UHGV virus genome: UHGV-0079576 | Direction: 5' to 3' (one strand) | Length of the DNA: 25,233 nt | Origin: a virus | Shown: positions 2,352-25,233 of the stretch, in pieces | How positions within the stretch are numbered: position 1 is the first letter of the stretch | Layout: every line of letters starts with the position of its first letter | The notes under the pieces: model-generated | What the model was told of the DNA's origin: nothing | Seen by the model: only the letters and a program-made list of their open reading frames with translations | The model's database searches: none | Position numbers and translations under genes: made by a program

Positions 2352-2352
2352 T

Positions 2353-2535
2353 ATGACGCGAAAACACTGGACACACAGAATGCCGCGAACGGCGGCGAAA
2401 TGGGCACTGGTAGCGATACTGGTGCCTTTTTTCCTGGTGGGATGCGTCAGCCTGGATAAAGCGCGCCAGCTTTTCGATACAGCTTCTCAGGTCTGTGAAA
2501 TTGTCGACGGTGTTCGGCAGTGTCTGCAGAACTGA
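2353..2535 (+). CDS. Predicted small lipoprotein (lipobox LVGC; mature part about 30 aa with 3 Cys)
   Basis: ATG at 2353 (alternative ATG at 2380); signal-like KWALVAILVPFFLVGC followed by CVSLDKARQLFDTASQVCEIVDGVRQCLQN; GGTGGTG upstream. Confidence 0.45.
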   Translation: MTRKHWTHRMPRTAAKWALVAILVPFFLVGCVSLDKARQLFDTASQVCEIVDGVRQCLQN

Positions 2536-2706
2536 ACGCCCGAAAGAGCAGAATATTTTGCTGAAAAATGAAGGGTGCGCCAGCGTCCGGAAAGCATGAA
2601 ATTCTGTGTTTGTGGCTACTCAATAAAATAAATTCTTTCTGTCGCCGCGAATACTCAAATGTTGATCAGTGCCCGGTGCGGCGACGGGCTTCGATATCAG
2701 GAGACG

Positions 2707-3006
2707 ATGATGGAAAAAACAGAAAACAAACCGATTGTAATTGGTGCTGATGCTGCTCCGTTTAAGTTTGAGTTGTCTCAACTGGTGGAGATGCGTATCA
2801 GTGATGAATGGGGTGAAGTTAAAGCCCGCGCGCAGTATGCGGATGGCGAAAACCAGTACCTGATCCACTACAAAGCTGCTGATGGTCGTGCCACAACTGA
2901 GTGGTTTGGTGAGTCAATGCTGGAAGCAACAGAAGATGATCGTCATCCTGGTTGTCCGGTATTTGCTGGTATGGAATTACCGAAAGGCGCGGTCGTTACT
3001 GAGTAA
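2707..3006 (+). CDS. Hypothetical small acidic protein (99 aa) directly upstream of cos
   Basis: ATG at 2707 with AGGAG 5-6 nt upstream; no recognisable family from sequence alone. Confidence 0.5.
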   Translation: MMEKTENKPIVIGADAAPFKFELSQLVEMRISDEWGEVKARAQYADGENQYLIHYKAADGRATTEWFGESMLEATEDDRHPGCPVFAGMELPKGAVVTE

Positions 3007-3092
3007 CGGGCATTACAGCAGCCCTTTATGGTGAGGGGCTGCGATAATGCAGGTATTAGAGTGTGCGTAAATGATAATTGCTCCTATTTCCG

Positions 3093-7527: not shown

Positions 7528-9133
7528 TTTATCGCATATTGCCGCCATGGCATTTAATGAGCCGCTTTTACTGGAACCCGCCTATGCGCGGGTTTTCTTT
7601 TGCGCGCTGGGTAAAGAGATGGGGGCCGGCAGCCTTGCCGTTCCTCAGCAGGCTGTTCAGCTTGATGCTGATGGTATGCAACTGGCGGTGACTGACTATA
7701 TGGCGGGCGGTCAGCGTCCGGCAAAGAGTTACCAGGTGAAGAATGGCATCGCCATTCTGCCGGTGAGCGGCACGCTGGTGCATAAACTGGGTACCCTGCG
7801 GCCTTACTCCGGCATGACTGGCTATGACGGCCTGACGGCCCGCCTTCAGATGGCGGTGAATGATCCGGATGTGCGCGGCATTTTGCTGGATATCGACAGC
7901 CCGGGCGGTCAGGCTGCCGGGGCGTTTGACTGTGCTGACATGATTTACCGCCTGCGGGAACAGAAGCCCGTGTGGGCGCTGTGTAATGACATGGCCTGTT
8001 CAGCCGCCATGTTGCTGGCGGCAGCCTGTACGCGTCGGCTGGTCACGCAGACGGCAAAAATTGGTTCGATTGGTGTGATGATGGCGCACACCAGTTACGA
8101 GAAACAACTGGCACAGGAAGGGGTGGATATCACGCTGATTTACGCCGGGCAGCACAAGGTTGACGGCAACAGTATTCAGGCATTGCCGGCAGGTGTGCGT
8201 GCAGATTTTCAGCGCCGTATTGATGAGGCCCGCCGGATGTTTGTCGACAAAGTGGCGCTTTATACGGGGCTGAGTTCAGAGGCGGTGATGAATACCGAGG
8301 CTGCCGTTTATGACGGTCAGGCAGGCATTGATGCAGGCCTGGCTGATCAACTGATTAATGCTGCAGATGCCGTTGAAGTGATGGTTTCTGCACTGAATGA
8401 CTCTGTTACGAAGGAGAATGCAATGACTGTTAAAAATCTCACCGTTGCTGAAGCGGTGGCCCAGGAAAATCAGCGCGTGATGGGGATCCTGAATTGTCAG
8501 GAGGCGAAAGGGCGCGAGCAACTGGCGCAAATGCTGGCAGGTCAACCTGGAATGACGGTTGAGCAGGCGAAAACGTTGCTGGCTGCTGCGCCGGTTGCCG
8601 GTACTGACAGCACGGGTGATCAGATTATGACGCTGCCGGAAGCAAAGGGGCGTGAGCAACTGGCGCAGATGCTGGCAGGTCAACCGGGGATGACGGTGGC
8701 GCAGGCGAAAGCGTTTCTGGCGGCAGCCCCTGCAGCCGGTGCTGCAGGCACAGGCGATCAGATTATGGCGTTACCAGAAGCAAAAGGGCGTGAACAACTC
8801 GCGCAGGCGCTGGCTGAACAGCCGGGAATGACCGTTGACCAGGCCAAAACGTTACTGGCGGCGGCACCGGTTGCGGGTTCTGCAAGTGTCGGCGAGCAGA
8901 TTATGGCGCTGCCGGAGGCGAAAGGGCGCGAACAACTTGCACAGGCACTGACAGAACAGCCAGGAATGACGGTGGCGCAGGCGAAAACGCTGCTGGCAGC
9001 CGCGCCGGCGGCATCGCAACCGTCACAGGAAACACTTTTTGATCGCTTTATGGCACAGCATGCTGCCAGTGCGGTTTCCGGTGGCGGAACGGCCGGGCGC
9101 GGGGAGGAAGACCTGCTGATGAGTATGCCGTAA
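7517..9133 (+). CDS. C: Prohead protease / minor capsid protein C (S49 peptidase family) with a C-terminal repeat-containing scaffold-like domain
   Basis: ATG at 7517 (GTG at 7514); N-terminal two-thirds is ClpP/S49-like; C-terminal third carries four 46-aa repeats; position as lambda C. Confidence 0.8.
   Translation: MRRNLSHIAAMAFNEPLLLEPAYARVFFCALGKEMGAGSLAVPQQAVQLDADGMQLAVTDYMAGGQRPAKSYQVKNGIAILPVSGTLVHKLGTLRPYSGMTGYDGLTARLQMAVNDPDVRGILLDIDSPGGQAAGAFDCADMIYRLREQKPVWALCNDMACSAAMLLAAACTRRLVTQTAKIGSIGVMMAHTSYEKQLAQEGVDITLIYAGQHKVDGNSIQALPAGVRADFQRRIDEARRMFVDKVALYTGLSSEAVMNTEAAVYDGQAGIDAGLADQLINAADAVEVMVSALNDSVTKENAMTVKNLTVAEAVAQENQRVMGILNCQEAKGREQLAQMLAGQPGMTVEQAKTLLAAAPVAGTDSTGDQIMTLPEAKGREQLAQMLAGQPGMTVAQAKAFLAAAPAAGAAGTGDQIMALPEAKGREQLAQALAEQPGMTVDQAKTLLAAAPVAGSASVGEQIMALPEAKGREQLAQALTEQPGMTVAQAKTLLAAAPAASQPSQETLFDRFMAQHAASAVSGGGTAGRGEEDLLMSMP
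8423..9133 (+). CDS. Nested in-frame scaffold protein (lambda Nu3-like) initiated inside the C gene
   Basis: In-frame ATG at 8423 preceded by AAGGAG (8411-8416); would give a 236-aa product covering the repeat array; analogous to the lambda C/Nu3 in-frame overlap. Confidence 0.4.
   Translation: MTVKNLTVAEAVAQENQRVMGILNCQEAKGREQLAQMLAGQPGMTVEQAKTLLAAAPVAGTDSTGDQIMTLPEAKGREQLAQMLAGQPGMTVAQAKAFLAAAPAAGAAGTGDQIMALPEAKGREQLAQALAEQPGMTVDQAKTLLAAAPVAGSASVGEQIMALPEAKGREQLAQALTEQPGMTVAQAKTLLAAAPAASQPSQETLFDRFMAQHAASAVSGGGTAGRGEEDLLMSMP
8501..9010 (+). repeat. In-frame tandem repeat array, about 3.7 copies of 138 bp (46 aa: EAKGREQLAQ(M/A)LA(G/E)QPGMTV.QAK..LAAAP.AG…QIM.LP)
   Basis: Units begin at 8501, 8639, 8777 and 8915 with high nucleotide identity. 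Confidence 0.85.
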
Positions 9134-10654: not shown

Positions 10655-11020
10655 ATGACAAAAGAGCAGATGACGGAACGCCTTCAGGAGCTGGCAGTGA
10701 TTCTGGGGCGTGAAGCAGATATTTCAGGTTCAAAAGCCGATCTTGAACAGCGCCTGGCGGAATGGGAAGAGGAGGCCGCTGGATTTGATGTGGGGGATAC
10801 AGGGGCGGAAGAGGTGGACAACAACGTATCCGGCGATGGGATGCATTCTGAGCGGGGACTCGTTCGGGTGCGCATGCTGAAAACGGCACATATGCCAGCC
10901 TGTGATGCAGCGACAGGAAAGATGTTGATGTTCGCCCGGGCCTCCAGTGTTGTGCTGGTTAATGAAGCTGCCGTTCCTGCATTACTGGCGGACGGTCTGG
11001 CAGAAAAAATCCGGGAGTGA
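10655..11020 (+). CDS. DNA-packaging / head accessory protein (lambda FI-like)
   Basis: ATG at 10655 (GTG 10652); N-terminus MTKEQMTERLQELAVILGRE… parallels lambda FI MTKDELIARLRSLGEQLNRD…; position after E. Confidence 0.55.
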   Translation: MTKEQMTERLQELAVILGREADISGSKADLEQRLAEWEEEAAGFDVGDTGAEEVDNNVSGDGMHSERGLVRVRMLKTAHMPACDAATGKMLMFARASSVVLVNEAAVPALLADGLAEKIRE

Positions 11021-11424
11021 TGATGTTCGATAATCTGTTCGATCAGGCCATGAGTGATGCGGATGACATCATCCTGGATACGATGGGGACGGAAATCAGC
11101 ATATATCCTGGCGGCACGGAAAGAAAAATCCGTGCCGTTTTCGATGCCCCGGCAGATAACACCGGGATGAACACTGGCAGCGGCGAAATTCGTGATACTG
11201 CGCCTGTGTTATTTACCCGGAGTGCATGGGCCGCCGGTCTGAAAAAATATGACAGGGTCATGATCCACGGCGAACCCTACCAGGTAGTCGATCCCGGCTG
11301 GGATGAGTCAGGCACTGCGGGTCAGGGTGTGATTACCATCACCCTCGCGCGGGGAGAGCCGGGGAGAAATACACCTTCCGCGCCGGAACGACCGAGTAAA
11401 CGTTATGGCAGTCAGAGAGCATGA
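11020..11424 (+). CDS. FII: Head-tail joining protein (lambda FII-like)
   Basis: N-terminus MMFDNLFDQAMSDADDII… parallels lambda FII MADFDNLFDAAIARADETI…; start overlaps the FI stop. Confidence 0.7.
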   Translation: MMFDNLFDQAMSDADDIILDTMGTEISIYPGGTERKIRAVFDAPADNTGMNTGSGEIRDTAPVLFTRSAWAAGLKKYDRVMIHGEPYQVVDPGWDESGTAGQGVITITLARGEPGRNTPSAPERPSKRYGSQRA

Positions 11425-12127
11425 ACGAAGCAGTGCCCGGCAGCGACGGCTGGCACGAAACCTCGTCGTCGATATTGATGAAGATGAGGTGCTGAAAATT
11501 ATCGCTAAACTGGGCGGTTCAAAAAGCCAGATCCGTAAAGCCTGGGGCGTGGCACTGAAAAGAGCTTCGTCTGCACTGCGGATGAAGGCTATGGCAGAGT
11601 TTAAAAAACAGGTTGCCCCACGCAGTCAGAAAATGATCAAAAAGCGTGTTCTGCATAATTTTGTCATTCGTCGTAACGGTGATGAGTTTGATGAGGCGAA
11701 GGTGTGGTTTGGTCTGAATGCCATCAAAGTACGTGATCTGCGCGGACGCATAAGTGGGGGACGACGCGGCGAACGTCATCAGTTGCGCGATGAGCGGGGA
11801 CGTTTTGCACCAGCTTCCCACCGCAGGAAGGCGCGGGAGATCCGTTTTAAACCTTCCGGGGAATCCCTGCCTGTCACCACCTGGTCAACGGATGATGCCT
11901 TCATCAACCAGTTCGAAACGGAAAATCGTAACGGACGTATATCAAAAAGGAAAACGATACTGGTCCGACAGGCATCCGGACGACGGAGGGTGCGTGAAGC
12001 GGAAATTGATATTTATGAAGCCATGCTGAACCGTATAGAGGATTTTGTTTTTCCGGATGCGGAAGCACTGATCCTGAAAAATTTTGAGCATGAACTGAAA
12101 TTCCGGGTATTTAAGGGGCTGGAGTGA
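11405..12127 (+). CDS. Putative neck / tail-completion protein (lambda Z-like by position and weak similarity)
   Basis: 240 aa, basic, overlaps the FII 3' end; weak resemblance to lambda Z in mid-region and C-terminus; assignment tentative. Confidence 0.4.
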   Translation: MAVREHERSSARQRRLARNLVVDIDEDEVLKIIAKLGGSKSQIRKAWGVALKRASSALRMKAMAEFKKQVAPRSQKMIKKRVLHNFVIRRNGDEFDEAKVWFGLNAIKVRDLRGRISGGRRGERHQLRDERGRFAPASHRRKAREIRFKPSGESLPVTTWSTDDAFINQFETENRNGRISKRKTILVRQASGRRRVREAEIDIYEAMLNRIEDFVFPDAEALILKNFEHELKFRVFKGLE

Positions 12128-12690
12128 TGGAGCCATTGATGATGGGAGCCTGGCATCAGGCGGTGATTGACAGTCTGAAACAAATTCCCTGGGTGGAAGA
12201 TGCCGATGAATACCCGGAAAAAGTGACGCAACTGGTGACGCCTGCCGTGTTTGTGGATGTACCTGGCTGGGACAAGACTCAGTTTGCCGACGGGCAGACG
12301 CGGGTCACGTTGAAATGTGATCTGTTTGTGGTGACAGACCGGGCCGGAAAGACGGAAAACGTGCCAAAACCGCAGATTTTTGCCCGTTGCCTGGCGATGG
12401 ATTTGTCTGACTGGATTGAGGGGGCCACGTTCGGGCTGGATAACGTTGATCCGGCTGTTTTTATTGATGCAGAGGTGGATACCTTCGACCGGCTTCTGGA
12501 TGACTACATCGTTTTCCGTGTTTCTTTCGAACAGGATATTCCTGTCGGGGAAGATCCGTTCGCGGTTCCGGCAGGTGCGCCATTACAGGAAGTCTGGCTG
12601 GGGAAAGTTCCGGAAACTGGCAAGAGACATGAGCGGGATTATCGTCTTATCTGGAAAACCGAGGGCACTGGCAATGAGTCTGGCGGATGA
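12127..12690 (+). CDS. Putative tail terminator / tail completion protein (lambda U-like fold by weak similarity)
   Basis: ATG at 12127 overlapping the upstream stop (TGATG); pattern WHQAVIDSLKQ…TPAVFVDVPGW…RVTLKCDLFVV…DYIVFRVSF resembles the lambda U layout. Confidence 0.4.
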   Translation: MEPLMMGAWHQAVIDSLKQIPWVEDADEYPEKVTQLVTPAVFVDVPGWDKTQFADGQTRVTLKCDLFVVTDRAGKTENVPKPQIFARCLAMDLSDWIEGATFGLDNVDPAVFIDAEVDTFDRLLDDYIVFRVSFEQDIPVGEDPFAVPAGAPLQEVWLGKVPETGKRHERDYRLIWKTEGTGNESGG

Positions 12691-13297
12691 AGTGGCAGAG
12701 TTACGCCGCAGGGTGGCGGATATGGTGCGGCGTGGGGTGGTGGAGGAAGTGATACCGGGTAGTCCGGTGATGGTTCGGGTGGATATCGGGGATGTGCTTT
12801 CGCCGCCGTTACCCTGGATTCAGGTGCAGTCCGGGCGCTACATGCAGGTCAGTAATTATCCGGCTCCCGGCGATGCCGTTACGGTGATATCGGAGGCGGG
12901 CGATCTGCGTAACGGTCGGGTGTATCCGGGGGCCAATATTGACGCTATCCCTGTCCCTGAGGGCAGTAAATACGAACATGTTATTTTGTTTGATACCGGA
13001 ACGGAAATCCGTTACGACCGTAAGGCTAATGCCCTGTCCATCACGCTGGCTGAAGGCGGTAGCTATAAAATTACCGGCAAGGGAACCCTGGACGGTCCGG
13101 TAGAAATCACAGACACCCTGACCGTACAGGGTAAAGCAACCATGAATACTGAAGCGGTAATTAAGGCGGATCTGACGGTCGGTGGTGAGGTTTCTGATCA
13201 TTACGGAACGATGAGTCAAATCCGGCTTGTCTATAACGGTCACAATCACCGGGGCGACAGTGGTGGCAGCACCGGACAGCCTGGTCAGCAAATGTAA
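12674..13297 (+). CDS. V: Baseplate spike / central hub protein (P2 gpV-like)
   Basis: ATG at 12674 inside the upstream gene's 3' end; N-terminus MSLADEVAELRRRVADMVRRGVVEEV and C-terminal HNHRGDSGGSTGQP parallel P2 V (…HTHKHPGDSGGTTGSP); the track's 12380 start is rejected. Confidence 0.75.
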   Translation: MSLADEVAELRRRVADMVRRGVVEEVIPGSPVMVRVDIGDVLSPPLPWIQVQSGRYMQVSNYPAPGDAVTVISEAGDLRNGRVYPGANIDAIPVPEGSKYEHVILFDTGTEIRYDRKANALSITLAEGGSYKITGKGTLDGPVEITDTLTVQGKATMNTEAVIKADLTVGGEVSDHYGTMSQIRLVYNGHNHRGDSGGSTGQPGQQM

Positions 13298-13330
13298 TCT
13301 CCTTTTCAGTTTTTTTCCGGAATAAACAAC

Positions 13331-13687
13331 ATGATTGGTATTGATTCAGCCACCGGCAGATATCTGCACGGTAACGAACATCTGCGCCAGTCCGTCACCG
13401 ATATTTTGTCAACGCCGGTCGGCAGCCGGGTCCTGCTCAGGGAATACGGCAGCAGACTGTTCAGTCTGCTTGATAACCCACAGGATGATTTCACGCGGGT
13501 GAGAATTGTCCGTGAAACGGCAACCGCCCTTGAACGCTGGGAACCCCGCCTGACCCTCCGGCGGGTGGAGGTGACGTGGACAGGAGCAGGGAGCGCCTGG
13601 CTGACGCTTGTCGGGGTGAACAACGAAACTCAGGACATGATTCGACTCGAGGAGATAAAAATTGGCAATGTCTCAGGCAATCATTGA
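13331..13687 (+). CDS. W: Baseplate wedge protein (P2 gpW / gp25-like)
   Basis: 118 aa; …SVTDILSTPVGSRVLLREYGSRLFSLLDNPQ…LERWEPRLTL… parallels P2 W. Confidence 0.8.
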   Translation: MIGIDSATGRYLHGNEHLRQSVTDILSTPVGSRVLLREYGSRLFSLLDNPQDDFTRVRIVRETATALERWEPRLTLRRVEVTWTGAGSAWLTLVGVNNETQDMIRLEEIKIGNVSGNH

Positions 13688-14576
13688 TCTGTCCGCGATA
13701 CCGGTACCGGATGCTGTGGAAGTGCCGGATACCGCAATGCTCGTCTCTCAGATAGTGGCGAAGTATCAGGAGGTGGATACGTTGTTTTCAGCACTGGTGG
13801 AATCTGATCCTGCTTATAAATGGGCGGAGGCACTGGCTTTTCGGGTGGCGCTGATGCGCCAGCAAATAAATGATGCAGTTCGTGCAGTACTGCTTGCCAG
13901 TGCCGGTGGGAACGATCTGGATCAGGTTGGCGCGAATTATCAGGTACAGCGGCTGGTAATTACCCCTGCAGACGACAGCACCATTCCGCCCACGCCGGCG
14001 GTGTATGAAGATGATGACGCCTTTCGCGAACGCATTCAGTTGTCATGGGCACGGCTCAGCACCGCTGGCGCGAAAAATGCGTACCACTATTTTGCACAAA
14101 GTGCTGATCCTGATGTGCTGGATGTGAAAGCCTACGGGCCGGAAACGCATTCGCAGGAAGGGCGGGTTTTTCTTTATGTGTTATCCCGGTCAGGAAATGG
14201 CACCGCATCACAACCCCTGCTGGATAAGGTGGCAGCATCAGTCAGTGATGATGAAACCCGTCCCCTGACGGATTTTGTCAGTGTCCGGGCGGCAGAAATT
14301 ATTCCCTACGACGTGGTGGCGAATATTCATATTCCCTACGGACTGGATGGTGAACTGGTAATGGCAAATGCCCGTAAGGCGCTGCAGTCTTACACTGACA
14401 GTGTCCACAGGATTGGTTCAGTGGCATCCCGTTCCGGCATGGATGGTGCACTGCACCAGACCGGGGTGATTACGGTGAATCTGACCTCTCCTGCCAGTGA
14501 TATCGTTCCTGCGATGGGGCAGGCACCGTGGTGCCGTAAGGTAACACTGAACAAGGTGGAGACAACCGATGAATGA
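13668..14576 (+). CDS. J: Baseplate assembly protein (P2 gpJ-like)
   Basis: Collinear with P2 J (AIIDLSAIPVPDAV…LLASAGGNDLDQVGANYQVQRLVITPADDSTIPPTPAV…); ATG at 13668 (track start is TTG 13662). Confidence 0.9.
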   Translation: MSQAIIDLSAIPVPDAVEVPDTAMLVSQIVAKYQEVDTLFSALVESDPAYKWAEALAFRVALMRQQINDAVRAVLLASAGGNDLDQVGANYQVQRLVITPADDSTIPPTPAVYEDDDAFRERIQLSWARLSTAGAKNAYHYFAQSADPDVLDVKAYGPETHSQEGRVFLYVLSRSGNGTASQPLLDKVAASVSDDETRPLTDFVSVRAAEIIPYDVVANIHIPYGLDGELVMANARKALQSYTDSVHRIGSVASRSGMDGALHQTGVITVNLTSPASDIVPAMGQAPWCRKVTLNKVETTDE

Positions 14577-16980
14577 CGATATCAGGAGCATACTGCCGAT
14601 CAATGCCAGCCGGGCAGAGCGGGTGGTGGACTGTGTCGCCGGAGATATGTTGGCAGACATAGCTGTCTGTCTGATCCGCTATGTGAAAAATCCCGATTTA
14701 TGTCCTGCTGAATTGCTGCCATGGCTGGCCTGGGAAATGGCAGTAGATACCTGGAATGAACACTGGACGGAGGTGGAAAAACGTTCTGCTATAAAGCGTG
14801 CCGCCTATATCCATCGCCACAGAGGGACTAAAGCGGCGCTGATGGCGTCGCTGGCTGACAGTCCGTTCCGGTCGCAGATTGTGGAATGGTATGAGCAGAC
14901 GCCGCCTGGTGATCCCTATACCTTCCGGTTGAATGTGGAGCAGAAGGACTTGCCTGTCCTGATGAGTGACCACCAGGATCTGAAACATGCCGTATTACGT
15001 GCCAAAAATCTGCGTAGCTGGTTCAGTATTCATGTTTATGGGGGCTGCCAGGGGAACGGATACAGCTATGGGTATGTGACAGCGACGGAAAAGATGAAAA
15101 ACAGGATACTGCCGTCAGAAATACAGTTGTCATCAGACAACTTACGACTGGCCCCTGGAGACGTTGTTTCTGTGCAGGTGACGGTGCTACCACTGATTGC
15201 TGATTCCCGCGTATTTTCTGTACAAATCGAAAATGACAGTGTGGCCGCGATAAGTGTTTCTGGTGATGTGGTTACTCTGACAGGGAAACAGTCTGGTCGA
15301 ACTACAGTCGTCGTATCAACGGTAAATGGAGTGGTTGCCAGACTGCCGGTAAGTGTTGTGTCGGTTGTTCAGGTTATTATCCGGGCAGATAACGCCAGCA
15401 TGCCACTGTTTTTTATCGATCCCCAGGATAACGACTTCACTATTGATTATGGTGATGGACTGGACAGCAGAGATTATGTGATTAAGGAGGATGTGGTCAA
15501 AGCTACCCGCACATTGCCGGTCGGAGAAGAAATTACACTGACGATTAAGGGCGCGGAAAGTCTGACATTCTACACCCCGAAGGCAGTAAACAACACCAAT
15601 CCACTCCTGGAGATCATCCGCGTCAGTGGTTCCAGAAAAGACATGTCGTGGTTTGCGAATCTGCAGTGGGCATTGCGAAAAATTCACGCAGGTTCTTTTG
15701 ATAATCTGCCTCACGTACTTTCATTTGAGAATGCCTTTAGGGGGTGTTCGTCTCTTCATGAATTACCTGAAAATCTTTTTGCCAGGTGCGAAGCTGTGGT
15801 GAATTGGTCTGGTGTATTCTATGGGTGCTCTGCCCTGACAGACATCCCACATTTATTTGCGACAAAATCAAGCGCGAACATACTTTCAAAACTGTTTTGT
15901 GGCTGTTCGGAGATCGTCCGGGTCCCGGAGACATTATTCGCTGGTATGGAGAATGCATTGACTTTTGAAAATGCTTTTTCCGGGTGTGAGAAGATGGTTA
16001 ATGCCCCCGCTATTCCAGCTCACAGACTTCAGAATTTTTACAGGGCGTTTTCTGGGTGTTGTAATCTTGCGGAACTCCCGGCGATATTTGGGGAGCAGAA
16101 CGAAAACGACGCATCATCAATTGATTTGTCCTGTGCGTTTTATGGTTGCCGAACACTGACAACCATTCCCGGTGGCTGGGCGGATGTTATCAGAAGCAGA
16201 ATTGCGCATATTGATGGCATATTTAATGAGTGTGACAGTATACGCAGTATACCTGCGCGATTGTTTTCTGGAGCAGATAAGCTTCGTTCTGCTAATAATG
16301 CGTTTTACAACTGCCACAGTATTACCCATGTTGGCGATGGTTTATTCGAGGGATGTCAGAAGCTGACAGGGATAAACGGGGTGTTTTATAACTGCAAATC
16401 ACTGGAAAGCATTGGTGACAGACTTTTTTCCGGGTGTGTGTCAGTTAAATCGGCATCAGAAACGTTTGCTAACTGTAATATTTCGACTGAGATCGGTGAA
16501 GGGACTTTTTCTGGTTGTACATCTCTGATATCAATGAATTCCGTTTTTGCAAATTGCAGAAAACTTATTATGTTACCGGCTGACACATTCAGAGGATGTA
16601 TTTCGCTGAAAGATGTGTCTTATATTTTTTCGAATTGCAATGCATTAACAAAGATTCAGGGGGAACTATTTGCAGACTGCCCACTTACCGTGAGCAGAGG
16701 CATGTTCAGATGGTGTTCGTCATTGATTAAGGTTCCTTGTGGGGTGATTAATCATCGGGAAAGTAGTGTCGACATGACCGAAATGTTTCGTGAGTGCACA
16801 TTATTGGCAATGGACATTAATGATATATTCCCGGATGTGTTTGCTGAAAAATGCAATCTGTCATATTTGTTTTTCCAGTGCAGCAATGTAACAGGCAGTA
16901 AGTCAGAATTTATGGCAAAGTTTCCGGATCCGGTATCTGTTGCTAATGCGTTTAATTATTGTTCGTTACTTACAGACTGA
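14569..16980 (+). CDS. I: Baseplate protein gpI fused to a C-terminal Ig-like (Big_2-type) domain and a long Cys-containing leucine-rich-repeat (BspA-like) domain; 803 aa
   Basis: First ~175 aa collinear with P2 gpI (…NPDLCPAELLPWLAWEMAVDTWNEHWTEVEKRSAIKRAAYIHRHRGTKAA…PPGDPYTFRLNV…); then an Ig-like beta-rich segment (VVSVQVTVLPL…VTLTGKQSGRTTVVVSTVNGVV); from ~15720 about 20 repeats of F-x-G-C-x-x-L-x-x-I/V-P; single uninterrupted ORF. Confidence 0.85.
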   Translation: MNDDIRSILPINASRAERVVDCVAGDMLADIAVCLIRYVKNPDLCPAELLPWLAWEMAVDTWNEHWTEVEKRSAIKRAAYIHRHRGTKAALMASLADSPFRSQIVEWYEQTPPGDPYTFRLNVEQKDLPVLMSDHQDLKHAVLRAKNLRSWFSIHVYGGCQGNGYSYGYVTATEKMKNRILPSEIQLSSDNLRLAPGDVVSVQVTVLPLIADSRVFSVQIENDSVAAISVSGDVVTLTGKQSGRTTVVVSTVNGVVARLPVSVVSVVQVIIRADNASMPLFFIDPQDNDFTIDYGDGLDSRDYVIKEDVVKATRTLPVGEEITLTIKGAESLTFYTPKAVNNTNPLLEIIRVSGSRKDMSWFANLQWALRKIHAGSFDNLPHVLSFENAFRGCSSLHELPENLFARCEAVVNWSGVFYGCSALTDIPHLFATKSSANILSKLFCGCSEIVRVPETLFAGMENALTFENAFSGCEKMVNAPAIPAHRLQNFYRAFSGCCNLAELPAIFGEQNENDASSIDLSCAFYGCRTLTTIPGGWADVIRSRIAHIDGIFNECDSIRSIPARLFSGADKLRSANNAFYNCHSITHVGDGLFEGCQKLTGINGVFYNCKSLESIGDRLFSGCVSVKSASETFANCNISTEIGEGTFSGCTSLISMNSVFANCRKLIMLPADTFRGCISLKDVSYIFSNCNALTKIQGELFADCPLTVSRGMFRWCSSLIKVPCGVINHRESSVDMTEMFRECTLLAMDINDIFPDVFAEKCNLSYLFFQCSNVTGSKSEFMAKFPDPVSVANAFNYCSLLTD

Positions 16981-16992
16981 TAAGGAGAATGT

Positions 16993-18381
16993 ATGCCATC
17001 AGGACTGACGTTAACAATACAAGGAGCAGCCGAAATTGAATCGGCTTATCAGACTGGTCAGGTGGTTACGATCACTCATGTACTGACGGGGGATGGTGGC
17101 GGTAAAACGTTACCATCAACACCTGATGAGATGGCTTCAATGTCGGCATTGTTGGGGCAATTTGGTCAGGAAGTGTTTTCTGAAGGTAAGGTTGAGCAGG
17201 GATTTATCAGTGGTGACATTGTCATTGACTGTAAAAAATATCCCGGAAGAACCTTGCGTGAGCTGGGAATGGTTAGCAGCAGCGGTACGCTGATTGCTTA
17301 TGGTCGTTATCCCGACACGTATTTACCGGCGCAGACTGATTCTGTTATCAAAGAAGTTATACTGACAATGGTTCTGGCGCTTACCCACACCCAGAATGTG
17401 ACGCTGGAGATTGATCCTGAAAGGGCCATTATTACCCAGGAAACAGGTGACAGGCGTTATCTGCAACGAAAAAACAATCTTTCAGATGTGGAAGACAATG
17501 ACGAAGCAATTGATAACCTCGGATTAAAACCCACGGTAGACAAGGCAAAAAATGCCGTTCAGCGTGATGGTGACACCATGAGCGGGGAACTGAAAATCCA
17601 TGGTGTGAATGCGCTGAGGATTTTCAACGAAGCTTTTGGTCTGATTTTTCGTCGTTCGGAAGAGTGCCTGCACCTTATCCCTACCAGTGAAGGTCAGGGT
17701 GAAAATGGCGATATTGGCCCCCTGCGTCCGTTCACCATAAATTTGCGGACGGGTGAGATATCCATGTCGCACAAAGTGTCTGTTGGCGGTGGTTCTCAGG
17801 TGAATGGTGCATTGGGTATCGGCGTTCTGAACGCACTGGGCGGTAACTCAATTGCTCTCGGAGATAACGATACAGGTATAAAACAAAACGGCGACGGCAT
17901 TCTGGATGTTTATGCGAATGGACAGCATGTATTTCGTTTTCAGAATGGGGTGGCAATAGCGTTAAAAAATATTCAGGCCGGAAATGCCAGGAAATTTACG
18001 CTATCCAGCACTAACGAATCTGCGAAAAATGCAACGTTTAATTTATGGGGGCATTCATCCAGACCCGTAGTTGTTGAACTTGGTGATGATTCAGGCTGGC
18101 ATTTTTACAGCCAGAGGAATACAGATAACAGCATCACGTTCGCTGTAAACGGACAGGTAGTGCCATCAAATTATGGAAACTTTGATGCCCGTTACCAGAT
18201 GAAAACAGGGATCGTACAGGATGTGCGACTGGGGAGTGCGGTTGGGATTGGGCGTGGAGGGAATGCACCATCAGGCCATTTGCTGAGCGGTGTTGATGGT
18301 GGCGAAAGCGTGGACTGGGCGAATGCCCGCCCGGTGCAGGTTCTGATTAATGGCGTCTGGCGGAATGTAGCGAGTTTGTAA
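16993..18381 (+). CDS. H: Tail fibre protein (P2 gpH-like N-terminal domain, divergent C-terminal receptor-binding part)
   Basis: 462 aa; AAGGAG RBS; N-terminus …VTITHVLTGDGGGKTLPSTPD…RELGMVSSSGTLIAYGRYP… parallels P2 H (…ITTMAVGDGGGK…RELGLYDDAGTLIAVANMA…). Confidence 0.75.
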   Translation: MPSGLTLTIQGAAEIESAYQTGQVVTITHVLTGDGGGKTLPSTPDEMASMSALLGQFGQEVFSEGKVEQGFISGDIVIDCKKYPGRTLRELGMVSSSGTLIAYGRYPDTYLPAQTDSVIKEVILTMVLALTHTQNVTLEIDPERAIITQETGDRRYLQRKNNLSDVEDNDEAIDNLGLKPTVDKAKNAVQRDGDTMSGELKIHGVNALRIFNEAFGLIFRRSEECLHLIPTSEGQGENGDIGPLRPFTINLRTGEISMSHKVSVGGGSQVNGALGIGVLNALGGNSIALGDNDTGIKQNGDGILDVYANGQHVFRFQNGVAIALKNIQAGNARKFTLSSTNESAKNATFNLWGHSSRPVVVELGDDSGWHFYSQRNTDNSITFAVNGQVVPSNYGNFDARYQMKTGIVQDVRLGSAVGIGRGGNAPSGHLLSGVDGGESVDWANARPVQVLINGVWRNVASL

Positions 18382-18383
18382 TT

Positions 18384-18929
18384 ATGATGCATTTAAAAAA
18401 TATTTCTGTTCAGAACCCTAAAACGATTGAGCAATACCAACTGGCACGACAGCATAAATTTTTATTGTGGCTGTTCTCAGAGGATGGTCAGGAATGGCAC
18501 GAAGCTCAGGAAAAATTTCAGCCAGACACACTCAAAGTGATTTATGTCAAAACGGGAGAAGTCGTCTGGGTCGGGAAAAATATCACATCGGTTTGCCCGG
18601 AAAATAAAAGCGTAATTGAACTGCCGGACATTACCGCGAATCGTCGTATTGCAGCGTCAGGCTACTGGTTTTACCGCAATGATGAATTTGTTTTCGACTA
18701 CAAATTAAAAGCAGAAGACGAACGCGATGCTCTGTTAAAGCAGGTCAGTATCGTGACCAGCGAGTGGGAAAAAGACCTGCAACTTGGGTTAATCAGCGAC
18801 GAAGATAAAGAAAAGCTGAAGGCGTACCGTATTTACGCAAAGAAATTGCAGATGATGGATTTCAGCAATATTTCGGATAAGGCCACTTACAACAATATCG
18901 TCTGGCCTGAGCCACCACAAAATATCTGA
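18384..18929 (+). CDS. Tail fibre assembly protein (Tfa-type chaperone)
   Basis: 181 aa immediately after the fibre gene; C-terminal …YNNIVWPEPPQNI motif typical of Tfa; low GC. Confidence 0.75.
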   Translation: MMHLKNISVQNPKTIEQYQLARQHKFLLWLFSEDGQEWHEAQEKFQPDTLKVIYVKTGEVVWVGKNITSVCPENKSVIELPDITANRRIAASGYWFYRNDEFVFDYKLKAEDERDALLKQVSIVTSEWEKDLQLGLISDEDKEKLKAYRIYAKKLQMMDFSNISDKATYNNIVWPEPPQNI

Positions 18930-18948
18930 AAAAGAAATGAATTATCTG

Positions 18949-18971
18949 ACCGCCTTAAGGGCGGTTTTTTT
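18949..18971 (+). terminator. Intrinsic terminator between fibre assembly gene and sheath gene
   Basis: Stem accgcc(18949-18954)/ggcggt(18960-18965), loop ttaag, then TTTTTTT. Confidence 0.6.
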
Positions 18972-18984
18972 ATGGGAGAAATGT

Positions 18985-20460
18985 ATGTCCGGATTACATG
19001 GTGTTGAAACCATTGAACTGACGACAGGCACGGTTGCCGTGCAGACCATCTCCACGGCTGTAATTGGCCTGGTGGGGACCGCGCCGGACGCCTCCGGTGG
19101 TGTGTGTGCTTCCGGTACAGCCGGTTCGTGGCTGCTGGGAACGGCGCTGGATTTTACGGCGAAACAGGAAGGTAGGGCTGGCAATAATATTTCGGTTGTT
19201 GCTGTCGCTGCCACAAAGCAAAGCGCGCAGACAGCGGCTTCGCTGGAAGGTTCGACCCTGATGATAACGCTGGGTACGGATGAACGCAGCCAGGTTAACA
19301 CCACGGTGGCTTGTGTGATTGAGGTGGTGAATGCACTGGGTGATTCGCCAGTGACAGTGGCGGTCAGTCCACTGAATGCAGAGGGTGCAGAAAATAATGT
19401 GGTGTCGCCGTTCAGTCTGACCTTATCCGGCGGAGAGGATGAGGCGTTTCCGGTTAATACACCGGTGGTGGTGGCGGGGGCGTTAACTCAGGCCGGGAAA
19501 CTGGGCGCAGCCGGGACATTATATCCGGCCCTGCGTGATATTTTTGACCAGACAGGTGCGCTGGTGATTGTGGTGCGTGCGGAAAGCAAAACGAAGGCAA
19601 AGGAAGCAGAACAGCGCGCGGCAGTCATTCGGGCAATGGAAGCCCTGATGGAAAGCAAAGGAAAAACGGGCTACCAGCCGCGCATTCTTATCGCTACTGG
19701 TTACAGTGAGGATGATGGCGTGGCAAAGGCGCTGGAAACGTACGCAGCGAAGTTACGGGCCGTGGCCTATATAGACTCCCCCTCAATGGCAACGCCGCAG
19801 GATGTGGTTCAGCGACGTGCGTCCTTTGGCGGGCGTGTGGAGCTGCTGCGTCCGCGCGTGTCAGTGATGGATGACAGCGGGCAGACGGTATTTCGTCCGT
19901 ATTCAGCACGAGCTGCAGGGCTACGTGCCCGTATTGATTACGAAAAAGGATGGTGGTGGTCCAAGTCAAACCAGGACGTGATGAATATCACTGGACTGGA
20001 GCAGGTTGACACATTTATTCTCGGAGAGCAGAACTGCACAGTAAACCTGCTGAACATGGAAAATATCTCCACCATTATTCGCCACGACGGTTTTAAACAC
20101 TGGGGGAACCGTCTGTGCTCATCCCACAGTCAGTGGCGTTTTGAGCCGGTACGCCGTACAGCAGATGTGATTGAAGACAGCATTCAGGAGGCCATGCTGC
20201 CTTATGTCGATCGGCCGCTTGATCGGGATGTGGCAGAAGACATTCTTGGCAGTATTAATGCCTATATGCGCCAGCTTAAAAATCTGGGCGCGATCCACGG
20301 AGGCAGTGCCTGGCTGAATGATGAACTGAATACAGCAGAAACCCTGGCGGCAGGGCAGTTGTATATTGATTATGACTTTGGGCCGAAGTCACCACTGGAG
20401 CGTCTGACACTGCGGGCGATGATTAACAATAAACTGGCGCTGGAGGAGCTGACAGTATGA
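18985..20460 (+). CDS. FI: Tail sheath protein (P2 FI-like)
   Basis: ATG at 18985 with GGGAG 6 nt upstream, downstream of the terminator; collinear with P2 FI (MSGLHGVETIEL…AVIGLVGTA…RARIDYEKGWW…TIIRHDGFKHWGNR…AGQLYIDYDFGPKSPLERLTLR); track start 18937 lies upstream of the terminator. Confidence 0.95.
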   Translation: MSGLHGVETIELTTGTVAVQTISTAVIGLVGTAPDASGGVCASGTAGSWLLGTALDFTAKQEGRAGNNISVVAVAATKQSAQTAASLEGSTLMITLGTDERSQVNTTVACVIEVVNALGDSPVTVAVSPLNAEGAENNVVSPFSLTLSGGEDEAFPVNTPVVVAGALTQAGKLGAAGTLYPALRDIFDQTGALVIVVRAESKTKAKEAEQRAAVIRAMEALMESKGKTGYQPRILIATGYSEDDGVAKALETYAAKLRAVAYIDSPSMATPQDVVQRRASFGGRVELLRPRVSVMDDSGQTVFRPYSARAAGLRARIDYEKGWWWSKSNQDVMNITGLEQVDTFILGEQNCTVNLLNMENISTIIRHDGFKHWGNRLCSSHSQWRFEPVRRTADVIEDSIQEAMLPYVDRPLDRDVAEDILGSINAYMRQLKNLGAIHGGSAWLNDELNTAETLAAGQLYIDYDFGPKSPLERLTLRAMINNKLALEELTV

Positions 20461-20975
20461 TTACGGGTGAAAAAAAACTGTTGCGCGCGTGGGCGTTATT
20501 TCTTCCTGGCGGGATCCGTCTTCAGGGGGCACATGAATACACGCCGCCTGCCATTAATATCACGACAGTGGATATCAAAACCGGCGCAATGGATGCACCG
20601 GTAGCAGTGGATGATGGCATGGAAGCACTGACCTGCTCATTTAAAATTTATGGCTACGATGTTGCCATGCTGACTCTGCTGGGGTTGCAGGCTGGACTTT
20701 ATTCACCGGAGATCGTTGTTCGTCAGGCTTACCGGGTGGGGAATGCGACCAGCGGACAGGTGGAAACCCTGCAGGGGATGATCACCAGTATCACCCCGGA
20801 TGCGCGCCCGGCAACATCACAGGCTGAGGCTTCGGTGACGGTGGAAATGTCACTGAGTTATTACCGTCAGGCTGTCGACGGTCTGGAAACCATCTGCATT
20901 ATTCCGGAGGAATTTGTGCGTCGTATTAACGGCGTTAATGTTCTGTCGGATCTGAAAAAAATTATCCGGGTTTAA
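20457..20975 (+). CDS. FII: Tail tube protein (P2 FII / Mu-type tube family)
   Basis: 172 aa directly after the sheath gene (ATGA overlap); size and position as a myophage tube. Confidence 0.8.
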   Translation: MITGEKKLLRAWALFLPGGIRLQGAHEYTPPAINITTVDIKTGAMDAPVAVDDGMEALTCSFKIYGYDVAMLTLLGLQAGLYSPEIVVRQAYRVGNATSGQVETLQGMITSITPDARPATSQAEASVTVEMSLSYYRQAVDGLETICIIPEEFVRRINGVNVLSDLKKIIRV

Positions 20976-20994
20976 TCCCGGCATCCTGTCATTC

Positions 20995-21022
20995 AGGCGG
21001 CTCAGGCCGCCTTTTCTTTTTT
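20995..21022 (+). terminator. Intrinsic terminator between tube gene and tail chaperone gene
   Basis: Stem aggcggc(20995-21001)/gccgcct(21006-21012), loop tcag, then ttttctttttt. Confidence 0.6.
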
Positions 21023-21036
21023 AAAAGGAGACGATT

Positions 21037-21339
21037 ATGTCGGAAAAAAACAGTGTTCCCGCCAGCAGTGTGGAAATTGTGTTATCCGTGCCGTATGTCA
21101 CCGCATCAGGACAGACGATCACGCATGTCACCATGCGTGCGCCTACCGTCCGCGATCGTCTGTTGCATCGCCGGAGTACCAAACCGGAAGCAGAGGCTGA
21201 TCTGGATATGATTGCCGGTCTGTGCGGGATGGACGCGGCGGACATGATGAACATGGAAGCGTGTGATTACCTGACCCTGGAGCGGCAGTTCAATGTTTTT
21301 TTGCTGCCGCCGGTCCGGCGGAAGAAGAAAGCATCCTGA
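21037..21339 (+). CDS. E: Tail assembly chaperone (P2 gpE-like), zero-frame product
   Basis: 100 aa; AAGGAG RBS; position between tube and tape measure; contains slippery heptamer near its 3' end. Confidence 0.7.
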   Translation: MSEKNSVPASSVEIVLSVPYVTASGQTITHVTMRAPTVRDRLLHRRSTKPEAEADLDMIAGLCGMDAADMMNMEACDYLTLERQFNVFLLPPVRRKKKAS

Positions 21340-21476
21340 CGGCGATACGGCGCGCCGGTGCCTGGTTCGGGTGGTCTCCGGGAGATGTGATGGCGCTGCC
21401 GTATACGGATTTTGTGGCAATGATGCTGGCGGAGTCGGAAGAGAGGAAGCGATGTTATGGCAACGGTGGGCGATAA
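21037..21476 (+). CDS. E': Frameshift-extended chaperone (P2 E+E'-like) by programmed -1 frameshift at T-TTT-TTG (21297-21303)
   Basis: Heptamer T TTT TTG in the E frame; the -1 frame is open from 21303 to stop TAA 21474-21476, overlapping the tape-measure start; GC-rich palindrome ccgccgg/ccggcgg (21307-21321) begins 4 nt downstream. Confidence 0.55.
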
Positions 21477-23109
21477 CCTTAAAGCGAATATCCGGATCGG
21501 AGGTTCGATAGATCCGTCGTGGAAAAAATCGGTTGATGGACTGAAGCACGGATTATCAGGGGCAACACAGGAAGTGGCTCGCCTGACACGCCAGCAGGAC
21601 GTACTGAAACGAAAAATTCAGGCTGGTGTACTGGCAGGACAGGATATTACCGAACTGCGAAAGCAGTATGAAAAGCTGGGCAGAAAAATTCATGATGCCA
21701 CCGGGGAACAGGATAAATTTAACCGTAAGCTGGCGCGGGCAGAACGTCTGGAACGCTGGAAAGGACGGGCCGGGACGGTTCTTAAAACCGGGCTGGGGCT
21801 TTCGGTTGGTTCCGGACTGACGCTGGCAGCCGGTGCCGGCGCGGTACTGAACCGGAATGCGGAAACGGCAGAGCGGTCAGGGATAGCCCGGAGTTACGGG
21901 GTGGATTATGAAACCTATGCGGCGTGGGATTCACTGGGCCGGCAGATGGGGTTAAACGGCGAAAACATCGGTGATCTGTTTGAGGAATACCGGAACAAGG
22001 TTTTTGACGATGATAATGGTGCCAAGGACAAAGGAGCCATTCAGGACGTATTCGGTAAACTTGGGCTGAAAGCGGGTGTAATGGTCGGAAAAAACAACCA
22101 GGAGCAGGTCGAGTTTTTGTTTGAACGCTTACTGCAGGTGGAGAATGAGCAGCAGGCTGCGGGGATGGCAGATGCGTTATTTGGTGGTGAAGCCAATAAA
22201 ATCCTGACCTGGATGCGTCTGTCAGGAAAGACCTTCCAGGAACTTATCAGTGAGCAGAAACGCTATAACCTGGTGACAAAGGAAGGGGCTGATGGCGCAG
22301 TTCAGGGGCATGTGGCGTTGTCAAATTTCCGTTATGTTCTGAGTTCTTCAATTGATGAAATCAGCGGACAGCTGGGTAATGAACTTGCTCCACATATTCA
22401 ACAGGTGACGGATGACCTTGCGGCCTGGTTTAAGAATGGTGGGCTGGAAAAAATCCGGGCATTTATCCGTGATGATGCCCTGCCGGCGCTGATCGACATG
22501 GCTGCGTGGATGTGGAAATTTGGAAAAGTTCTTGCCGGAATAACGCAGAAAGCCATTGAGTGGGGGCTGGCGGATGATCCGCGAGAGGACCGACGAGAAG
22601 TGCTGGAATATCTGGCAAAAATGGGGTCGCCGGAGCTGGCGAGAGCGGTAGCGCAGAAAAACGGTCAGGGGGAGTGGTTTGATGAACTGCTCAGGCAAAA
22701 TCCGGAGCTGACGAAACAGGTTGTACAGGCCTATAAAGACACTCGCGGTTATCTCCCCTGGAATCATGATGATAAAAAGTTTGATGCTTTTCTCGACCCT
22801 TTGTTGGGGCCGAAAGAAGAACCTGATTTTAAGGCGATAAAAGAGAAATCCCGCACCTACATTGACGGACTTCCTGCAGCAGATCATGGGCAGGGTAATT
22901 CGGACCCTCTCTCGGCTCTTCAGTATACCCCCGGCAATATCAGCCAGGTGGAAGTAAAACCCACGTATCAGATACGAGCGGAATTTAACATCACCCAGAA
23001 GCCCGACGAGGATGCCGGACAACTGGCAGACAGGGTAATGAGAAATCTGGGAGATATTAATTTTGGTCAGCGTTCCCGCATGACCGATGGTGATGCATTC
23101 TGGGGGTGA
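21457..23109 (+). CDS. T: Tail tape measure protein (P2 gpT-like)
   Basis: 550 aa, coiled-coil-rich N-terminus, Gly/Ala-rich hydrophobic segment (TGLGLSVGSGLTLAAGAGAV); position after E/E'. Confidence 0.9.
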   Translation: MATVGDNLKANIRIGGSIDPSWKKSVDGLKHGLSGATQEVARLTRQQDVLKRKIQAGVLAGQDITELRKQYEKLGRKIHDATGEQDKFNRKLARAERLERWKGRAGTVLKTGLGLSVGSGLTLAAGAGAVLNRNAETAERSGIARSYGVDYETYAAWDSLGRQMGLNGENIGDLFEEYRNKVFDDDNGAKDKGAIQDVFGKLGLKAGVMVGKNNQEQVEFLFERLLQVENEQQAAGMADALFGGEANKILTWMRLSGKTFQELISEQKRYNLVTKEGADGAVQGHVALSNFRYVLSSSIDEISGQLGNELAPHIQQVTDDLAAWFKNGGLEKIRAFIRDDALPALIDMAAWMWKFGKVLAGITQKAIEWGLADDPREDRREVLEYLAKMGSPELARAVAQKNGQGEWFDELLRQNPELTKQVVQAYKDTRGYLPWNHDDKKFDAFLDPLLGPKEEPDFKAIKEKSRTYIDGLPAADHGQGNSDPLSALQYTPGNISQVEVKPTYQIRAEFNITQKPDEDAGQLADRVMRNLGDINFGQRSRMTDGDAFWG

Positions 23110-24908: not shown

Positions 24909-25233
24909 ATGGCTGTATTAATTTCAGGTGTGCTGACTGATGGCGCGGGACTCCCCATGTCCGGATACCATATTCTTCTGAAAGCCAGGCAGAATACATC
25001 TGCAGTGGTCATGAGAACGGTGGCTGCAGTGGTGACAGGGGCGGCAGGAGAATATGCCTTTGAGGCTCAGACCGGAAAATATGATGTATATCTTCGGTCG
25101 TGCATTGAAAGAGAATATTGTGTCGGTGACATTTCAGTTTATGAAGACTCCAGACCCGGCACGCTGAACGACTTCCTTACCGCCCTTGATGAAGACGACC
25201 TGAAGCCGGATGTGGTGAAGCGTTTTGAGGAAA
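24909..25233 (+). CDS. stf: Side tail fibre protein, N-terminal part only (lambda Stf / prophage tail-fibre N-terminal domain); runs off the window
   Basis: MAVLISGVLTDGAGLPMSGYHILLKARQNTSAVVM…YDVYL…ISVYEDSRPGTLNDFLTALDEDDLKPDVVKRFE parallels lambda Stf MAVKISGVLKDGTGKPVQNCTIQLKA…YSVIL…ITVYEDSQPGTLNDFL…EDDARPE. Confidence 0.75.
   Translation, partial: MAVLISGVLTDGAGLPMSGYHILLKARQNTSAVVMRTVAAVVTGAAGEYAFEAQTGKYDVYLRSCIEREYCVGDISVYEDSRPGTLNDFLTALDEDDLKPDVVKRFEE

Follow-up and report, generated by a model that had tools for sequence, protein, structure and literature searches.

A probable mosaic host-recognition segment of low GC content in the P2-type tail genes of an Escherichia coli prophage

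The stretch of DNA considered here, UHGV virus genome UHGV-0079576 (25,233 nucleotides (nt), hereafter the window), is an Escherichia coli prophage with a P2-type contractile tail and lambda-type head genes. Its tail genes include a block of low guanine-plus-cytosine (GC) content, which comprises a long C-terminal extension of the baseplate wedge protein gpI, a tail fibre gene and the gene for a fibre-assembly chaperone. The layout given below is based on Pfam, PHROGs and the RefSeq annotation, produced by PGAP, of a prophage in the mouse isolate E. coli RSHH22 (L001), which is 99.4% identical to the window. In that annotation the head genes lying upstream, all of lambda type, encode an S49 protease, a decoration protein, a gpE-like capsid protein and FI, and the element is thus a lambda-head/P2-tail hybrid prophage.

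Gene layout of the segment

The features are listed with their positions in the window, where GC2 and GC3 denote the GC fraction at second and third codon positions, aa amino acids, Ig immunoglobulin and LRR leucine-rich repeat.

13662-14576: gpJ (Pfam Baseplate_J)
14569-16980, plus strand: gpI, 803 aa, wedge protein resembling P2 I and pyocin Tri2
14569-15096, plus strand: conserved N-terminal wedge domain of gpI, residues 1-176 (Pfam Tail_P2_I; 52.8% GC, GC3 0.60)
15097-16980, plus strand: C-terminal extension of gpI, residues 177-803 plus stop codon (44.3% GC)
about 15109-15372, plus strand: Big_2-like Ig domain (AlphaFold2 model, Foldseek)
about 15373-15663, plus strand: beta-sandwich (AlphaFold2 model)
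about 15664-16977, plus strand: BspA-type LRR solenoid (Pfam LRR_5; 42.6% GC, GC3 0.40)
16993-18381, plus strand: tail fibre, 462 aa (Pfam Phage_tail_fib; 47.9% GC, GC3 0.45)
17008-17439, plus strand: N-terminal collar or baseplate-attachment domain of the fibre, residues 6-149 (Pfam Phage_tail_fib)
17898-18342, plus strand: fibre stretch swapped relative to the relative L004 (comparative breakpoints)
18384-18929, plus strand: tail-fibre assembly chaperone, 181 aa (Pfam Caudo_TAP, phrog_136; 42.5% GC, GC2 0.29)
18948-18975, plus strand: intrinsic-terminator-like hairpin (GACCGCC-TTAA-GGGCGGT; 8-pair stem, 5 G-C pairs) with T-run
18985-20460, plus strand: tail sheath, 491 aa (start as annotated by PGAP in L001; ribosome-binding site GGGAGA; Pfam sheath domains; 55.1% GC)
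14978-19017, no strand: low-GC block found by a maximum-likelihood two-breakpoint fit with no prior assumptions (45.2% GC vs 53.4% in the rest)

The identity of gpI follows from its N-terminal part, of which residues 9-149 match Pfam Tail_P2_I (E 1e-33, 116.6 bits vs a cutoff of 20.6), and which finds the pyocin R2 protein Tri2 (PA0619, chain 6u5b_0) both by phmmer (E 1.6e-18) and by Foldseek. The gene comes straight after gpJ, which is gp6-like, and before the fibre gene at 16993. P2-like members of the family measure about 176-196 aa (176 aa in total for gpI of P2, 196 aa for the family relatives), compared with 803 aa in the window. Size is not strictly defining for gpI-like wedge proteins, since T4 gp7 has 1032 aa (PMC10457771); the Tri2/gp7 family, which joins fibres or spikes, varies widely, from 177 aa in the pyocin to this T4 length (PMC10457771, PMC10996793). 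In the (gp6)2-gp7 wedge module the gp7/gpI-like subunit is present in a single copy, at which fibres or spikes are attached and the contraction signal enters the baseplate (PMC10996793, PMC10457771). The 196-aa gpI aligns with the window's protein through ...YGYV(T/M)ATEK and continues in a tail of 19 residues, which in the window is replaced by 627 residues. Across most E. coli variants the N domain is 85-92% identical, and the left boundary of the block is an in-frame domain junction inside gpI. A programmed frameshift at this junction (ATG AAA AAC), by which a short and a long gpI would both be made, was considered and rejected, as the heptamer is non-canonical and the -1 frame has no nearby stop.

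Within the extension, the solenoid is recognised by Pfam LRR_5 (37.8 bits vs a cutoff of 27.7). An AlphaFold2 model of residues 181-803, built on a 20-sequence alignment, has predicted local distance difference test (pLDDT) values per block of 77-98; most of them exceed 85, and in the LRR part (361-803) most exceed 90. Foldseek matched this model to Big_2 and lambda gpV Ig domains in the PDB, and to many phage proteins named 'BspA family leucine-rich repeat' in BFVD, with E down to 1e-18. In PHROGs, the extension corresponds to phrog_9915 ('unknown function', E 1e-244). DNA-level tandem repeats, a possible source of variation, were searched for in the LRR region and none were found.

The N-terminus of the fibre matches Phage_tail_fib (E 4e-18, 66.4 bits vs a cutoff of 23) and aligns with P2 H and its relatives. 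From residue 160 or 173 to 462, tblastn identifies the C-terminus as a receptor-binding part like that of P2 H and P1 S, with identities of 72.6% to phiP27 L54, 51.5% to P2 H and 52% to P1 S; at the nucleotide level the fibre is 73% identical to P2 H 14191-14556. The chaperone gene starts 3 nt past the fibre stop, and its product matches Caudo_TAP (E 8e-24, 84.7 bits vs a cutoff of 22.1), with amino acid identities of 87.7% to phiP27 L55, 66.5% to a protein of the Actinobacillus phage pPE4 and about 42% to U of Mu, D108 and P1. By these similarities the fibre C-terminus and the chaperone belong to the P2 H-G / Mu S-U / P1 S-U family, and by analogy both probably work as they do in P2.

Size and edges of the composition step

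A sequence-only reading of this DNA had described a low-GC cassette at 15050-18929 on the basis of four hand-counted 60-nt samples, two inside and two in the flanking genes. The counts are exact (36.7, 40.0, 63.3 and 70.0%), but they are extreme picks, the standard deviation among 60-nt windows across the whole window being 7.5 points, and the flank values of 63-70% are unrepresentative of flanks whose GC content is 53-55%. The step itself is real and significant, with a size of about 8 points and not the 25-30 that the samples implied. When all segmentations with two breakpoints were searched without use of the earlier coordinates, the best fit was the block 14978-19017, with a log-likelihood gain of 44.8 nats. 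Recursive segmentation cut the whole window into four segments, one of them this block, which was not split further, and non-overlapping 300-nt windows inside and outside differ strongly (Mann-Whitney p = 1.7e-7). The lowest-GC stretch of 3880 nt in the window starts at 15094. With a window mean of 52.1%, GC content is 45.4% at 15050-18929 vs 53.3% in the rest, and the immediate flanks reach 53.7% (left, 11000-15049) and 53.3% (right, 18930-23000). The earlier observation is thus partly confirmed: correct in kind and exaggerated in size.

Its boundaries were well placed, as the fitted edges lie within about 70-90 nt of them. On the left, the coincidence with the end of the gpI-like domain holds: Tail_P2_I ends at residue 149 and homology to the short gpI at residues 176-178 (nt 15095). 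The N domain of gpI is flank-like in composition and lies essentially outside the block starting at 14978. On the right, the chaperone stop at 18929 and the hairpin at 18948-18975 agree with a terminator ahead of the sheath gene, although that gene starts at 18985 and not at 18937. The ATG at 18937, opened by the mechanical open reading frame (ORF) list, was rejected as the sheath start, since it lies upstream of the hairpin and would carry translation across it, and since PGAP annotates the in-frame ATG at 18985 in near-identical genomes. The hairpin is kept in all seven relatives examined (7/7), with the loop variants TTAA, TGA and TTTAA, and marks the right edge of the variable region.

Two further observations concern this edge. 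The hairpin and its run of seven T residues end just 9 nt before the sheath ATG, so closely that the T-run abuts the ribosome-binding site (GGGAGA) and leaves no space for a promoter; a sigma-70 promoter scan gave 6 matches vs 7.9 expected from shuffled sequences, that is, no excess. Either late transcription must read through the hairpin, which would fit lambda-type antitermination, or the hairpin may be an attenuator or an mRNA-stabilising element. In E. coli M8 (L009, NZ_CP019953.1, 7932-10750), an IS66 element (tnpA/tnpB/tnpC) is inserted at the equivalent of window position ~18998, 14 nt into the sheath ORF; it follows ATGTCCGGATTACA, and GGATTACA is duplicated on its far side. The annotated sheath is cut to 473 aa, and because IS66 shortens it, the M8 copy of the prophage is probably tail-defective.

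Module exchange and the source of the low GC content

The prophage family occurs in ~78 of 5426 complete E. coli genomes, with flanks 92-94% identical at the nucleotide level, whereas the window's gpI extension occurs in only 3 of these genomes, all from mice; most relatives examined have the short gpI of 196 aa. In four relatives (L002, L006, L007 and L008) the extension is absent, and homology ends at 15095 and restarts at 17023 with identical breakpoints in all four. Two of them, L002 and L007, nevertheless carry the window's fibre and chaperone at full length, with 86-92% identity in most of the fibre, and relative to such genomes the gpI extension (15096-17022) is an insertion or deletion. 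In L006 and L008, which also lack it, the N-terminal half of the fibre is held in common, a C-terminal stretch is swapped after 17948, and homology returns at 18371 (L006) or 18163 (L008). L004 has an extension 68% identical in amino acids and is collinear with the window to 17897, then has another fibre C-terminus and rejoins at 18343. In L005, the extension is part of an 861-aa gpI with an LRR about 40% identical, and is followed by a fibre of 336 aa. Breakpoints were thus found in the alignments at 15095, 17023, 17897 and 18343, with joints where the gpI core ends, inside the fibre collar domain or beyond it, and around the stop codon of the chaperone gene and the terminator. The block does not behave as a single unit, because relatives have or lack the extension whatever their fibre type, and these comparisons indicate that at least three sub-modules, namely the extension, the fibre C-terminus and the chaperone, assort independently. 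At its edges the block has a domain junction in frame and the terminator of an operon, without repeats or mobility genes; a search at the block for flanking direct or inverted repeats, or for an invertible segment of the Mu G / P1 C type, gave only short matches at chance level.

The window does not match the three mouse E. coli prophages evenly: identity is 98.9% from head-tail joining to the gpI N domain (11000-15049, compared with 15050-23000), 99.6-99.9% in the cassette and 99.8% from sheath to tape measure, which hints at another recent recombination boundary upstream of the cassette.

Beyond the immediate relatives, the fibre and chaperone are shared with phages that have only this stretch in common with the window: phiP27 (87% nucleotide identity), Rac-SA53 (88%) and an Actinobacillus phage (94% over 149 nt), whose fibre and chaperone are 62% and 66% identical in amino acids. 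phiP27 L54/L55 is the closest match in an isolated phage, the 87% extending over 17469-18867, with the C-terminal two thirds of the fibre and the chaperone being the parts that agree. It differs in its tail backbone, its fibre N-terminus and its short gpI-like protein (591 nt), so that only the C-terminal fibre/chaperone module is common to both. Elsewhere in the window, positions 1796-1982 and 2352-3058 are 92% and 95.8% identical at the nucleotide level to the lysis-region genes L30-L33 of phiP27, a Stx2e phage, and would represent a further mosaic segment shared with this otherwise unrelated phage.

In phages of the P2, Mu and P1 types it is textbook knowledge that the fibre and chaperone genes make up a mosaic module, richer in AT and exchanged horizontally. 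P2 H-G, like Mu S-U and P1 S-U, agrees with the window in the order J-I-fibre-chaperone-terminator, in a conserved fibre N-terminal attachment domain with a variable C-terminus, in the Caudo_TAP chaperone and in mosaic sharing. P2 also has the same dip in composition: GC content is 56-60% in V, W, J and I, 47.6% in the C-terminal part of H, 43.8% in G and 56% in FI and FII. In the window the dip begins one gene earlier because gpI has the 627-residue extension. Other differences are the shorter fibre (462 vs 669 aa for P2 H), the lack of an invertible segment such as that of Mu and P1, with no significant inverted repeats found, and the sheath gene directly after the terminator, where P2 has a moron (fun/Z) and a separate promoter in between. 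In other relatives GC content is 44-46% in the chaperone and 50-52% in the fibre, vs 55-58% in J and the sheath.

We therefore consider it probable that the block is a hypervariable host-recognition segment of a P2-type tail, put together as a mosaic from three or more modules that recombine independently and stem from an AT-richer shared pool. The modules would come from a gene pool common to unrelated enterobacterial (and Pasteurellaceae) phages and more AT-rich than the tail-machinery genes, and the sharp GC step would result from exchange that recurs at the conserved joints named above. Since P2 shows the same dip in the H C-terminus and G, the low GC content would be a standing property of the shared fibre gene pool and not the trace of a datable acquisition.

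One alternative, put forward in the sequence-only reading, is that the whole 3.9-kb block arrived in a single horizontal transfer from a donor of lower GC content. The segment is indeed contiguous and unsplit by composition, a synonymous shift toward AT is present in all three genes, the LRR_5/DUF285 family is found mostly in gut Clostridia and Bacteroidota, and an Actinobacillus phage has a related fibre and chaperone. A joint acquisition is contradicted by the comparison of L002, L007 and L004 with the window, in which the parts assort independently; in addition, relatives lacking the extension match the window's fibre and chaperone at 86-92% identity, a divergence similar to that of the flanks, P2 has the same pattern without any extension, no LRR donor above 31% amino acid identity was found, and the boundaries bear no repeats or mobility genes. 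We regard a single transfer as improbable. The earlier interpretation is thus partly supported: it was right about function and mobility, as gpI extension, fibre and chaperone are compositionally distinct and recombinationally mobile, wrong about a single acquisition, and unprovable as regards the donor. Outside phages, the LRR is most closely matched by BspA-type surface proteins from gut Clostridia, Bacteroidaceae and Prevotella, which would be in keeping with an origin long ago in bacteria of lower GC content.

A second alternative, to which we give equally little credence, holds that no transfer is involved and that the low GC content is a by-product of repeats and fibres rich in N, S, F, I and K, together with weak codon selection in tail proteins of low abundance. 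It was assessed with expected GC values computed from the codon usage of 18 flanking genes. The amino acid sequences of the cassette predict 49.6% GC, the pooled flank has 54.0% and the observed value is 45.5%, so that the deficit divides into -4.4 points from amino acid composition, about half, and -4.1 points from synonymous choice. In the chaperone it is mostly a matter of amino acid composition (-9.2 of -11.4 points; GC2 0.29), and the pattern is seen in every homologous cassette examined. Against this, the codon-usage check shows that the AT shift is partly synonymous: the synonymous effect is -2.2 to -5.4 points in the cassette, beyond the range of all 18 flank genes (-1.2 to +2.1 points), and GC3 drops from 0.53-0.62 in neighbouring genes to 0.40 in the LRR, 0.45 in the fibre and 0.49 in the chaperone. 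Flank-like GC3 is seen in the gpI N-domain, J and W, although these baseplate components are just as low in copy number, and the comparative breakpoints prove recombinational exchange. The synonymous shift fits a different evolutionary history, and not protein composition alone.

The gpI extension and host recognition

In the mosaic reading, a 1.9-kb extension has been fused in frame to gpI at residue 177. It would be displayed once per wedge, and from the single-copy position of gpI we infer six Ig-LRR arms per virion, projecting from the baseplate periphery beside the fibres. Each arm would sit where the fibre docks and where the trigger signal enters the baseplate, and may have an auxiliary part in adhesion or receptor binding. 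LRR solenoids are presumed to be monomeric and to need no trimerisation chaperone, which would suit a single-copy wedge subunit. The trimeric collar fibre, by comparison, would combine an N-terminus that fits the baseplate with a C-terminus of the P2 H / P1 S / phiP27 L54 family, and the Caudo_TAP chaperone would be cognate to it.

The variation of the extension agrees with such a role. Identity of gpI to P0001 falls from 88% in the core to 74% in the Ig domain, 76% in the middle, 68% in LRR-a and 62% in LRR-b, and identity to the 860-aa type from about 90% in the core to 60%, 52%, 38% and 41% in the same parts. The invariant LRR columns are regularly spaced F, C and L core residues, with F-x2-C-x2-L recurring about every 26 residues. 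A conserved scaffold with variable surfaces is the pattern that would be expected of a binding domain under diversification, and a receptor-binding role of the LRR domain is suggested by it. The extension is polymorphic: sequences from E. coli and related enterobacteria include at least five types, distinguished by length or sequence, whose LRR parts are 27-68% identical. Many gpI-LRR entries of 775-1050 aa, named 'phage tail protein I', come from E. coli, Salmonella and Klebsiella, and the protein search returned gpI-LRR clusters with hundreds of members, common in Enterobacteriaceae prophages. In all E. coli loci examined the long gpI is followed by fibre and chaperone, and in a Klebsiella phage by a fibre; since a fibre always follows, the extension would supplement the fibre and not replace it.

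That Klebsiella phage, ST16-OXA48phi5.4 (Peduoviridae, Reipivirus; L010), has the same architecture in gp35, a 'tail protein I' with Tail_P2_I, Ig and BspA-type LRR parts, encoded between J and a collar fibre, and its extension also has a GC content below that of its flanks (51.0% vs 56-61%). It differs in sequence, amino acid identity being only 33.6% for the extension and 56% for the gpI core, in length (1008 vs 803 aa) and in its true P2-like backbone, the head genes of the window being of lambda type. It also has a small extra ORF (70 aa, 43% GC) at 7487-7699, between the long gpI and the collar fibre. A 93-aa ORF is called at the same place in the E. coli relative L003 (8422-8703), and may be a frameshifted fibre. 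Among wedge proteins, pyocin R2 Tri2 (PA0619), T4 gp7 and XM1 gp17 are alike in that the gpI N-domain is homologous to PA0619; no solved member has an LRR solenoid, and the T4 gp7 extensions are unrelated structural baseplate domains. The BspA-family LRR surface proteins (LRR_5/DUF285) of Bacteroidota, Clostridia and Mollicutes belong to the same repeat family, at 25-31% identity. Their database matches carry BACON, Mfa, dockerin or lipoprotein partners, all lacking in the window's domain, which is fused to a virion baseplate protein.

Several points weigh against the mosaic reading and the role it gives to the extension. Composition alone did not split the block, the sub-modules being separated by comparative breakpoints only, and weaker codon selection, instead of history, could account for part of the synonymous AT shift. 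A scan of genome contigs with the extension, in search of a donor, found only 25-31% relatives in metagenome-assembled genomes of gut Clostridia and Bacteroidota, and a search of 5.8 billion proteins gave no non-phage match above about 31%. When the extension was compared by sequence with solved structures, generic LRR matches were all that appeared, with no structure of the extension itself, and literature searches aimed at LRRs on gpI, phage tails or receptor-binding proteins and at ST16-OXA48phi5.4 brought up no functional study of the fusion. In the long form the 19 C-terminal residues of the short gpI are lost, which could affect fibre docking.

The window also carries a second tail-fibre gene (24909-25233), which begins just after gpD and continues past the end of the window. 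It matches phrog_2636 (tail fiber N-terminal part, E 1e-57), is 74% identical at the nucleotide level to phiP27 L56, and is annotated in RefSeq relatives as 'prophage tail fiber N-terminal domain-containing protein'. Counting this gene, the phage may have up to three host-recognition devices.

A low-GC mosaic fibre cassette is already known, and essentially identical sequence is present in RefSeq; the block is a clean, quantified example of that pattern with exact breakpoints. The gpI-LRR architecture is likewise in the databases, where its annotation goes no further than 'tail protein I' or 'unknown function', and the fusion is noteworthy in that it would sit where receptor signals enter the baseplate and varies like a receptor-binding protein. 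It is possible, though we would stop short of calling it likely, that gpI with Ig and BspA-LRR domains forms a distinct class of receptor-binding device, monomeric and chaperone-free, on the single-copy wedge subunit that relays the trigger, and that it acts as a second host-range determinant swapped independently of the fibre. More speculatively, the extension might bind mucus or host-derived glycans and not a bacterial receptor, since the proteins related to its LRR are surface adhesins of gut bacteria and the E. coli with the closest genomes are from the mouse gut. If the extension is indeed a second host-range determinant, it would bear on the prediction of prophage host range and on the engineering of tailocins or P2-like phages.

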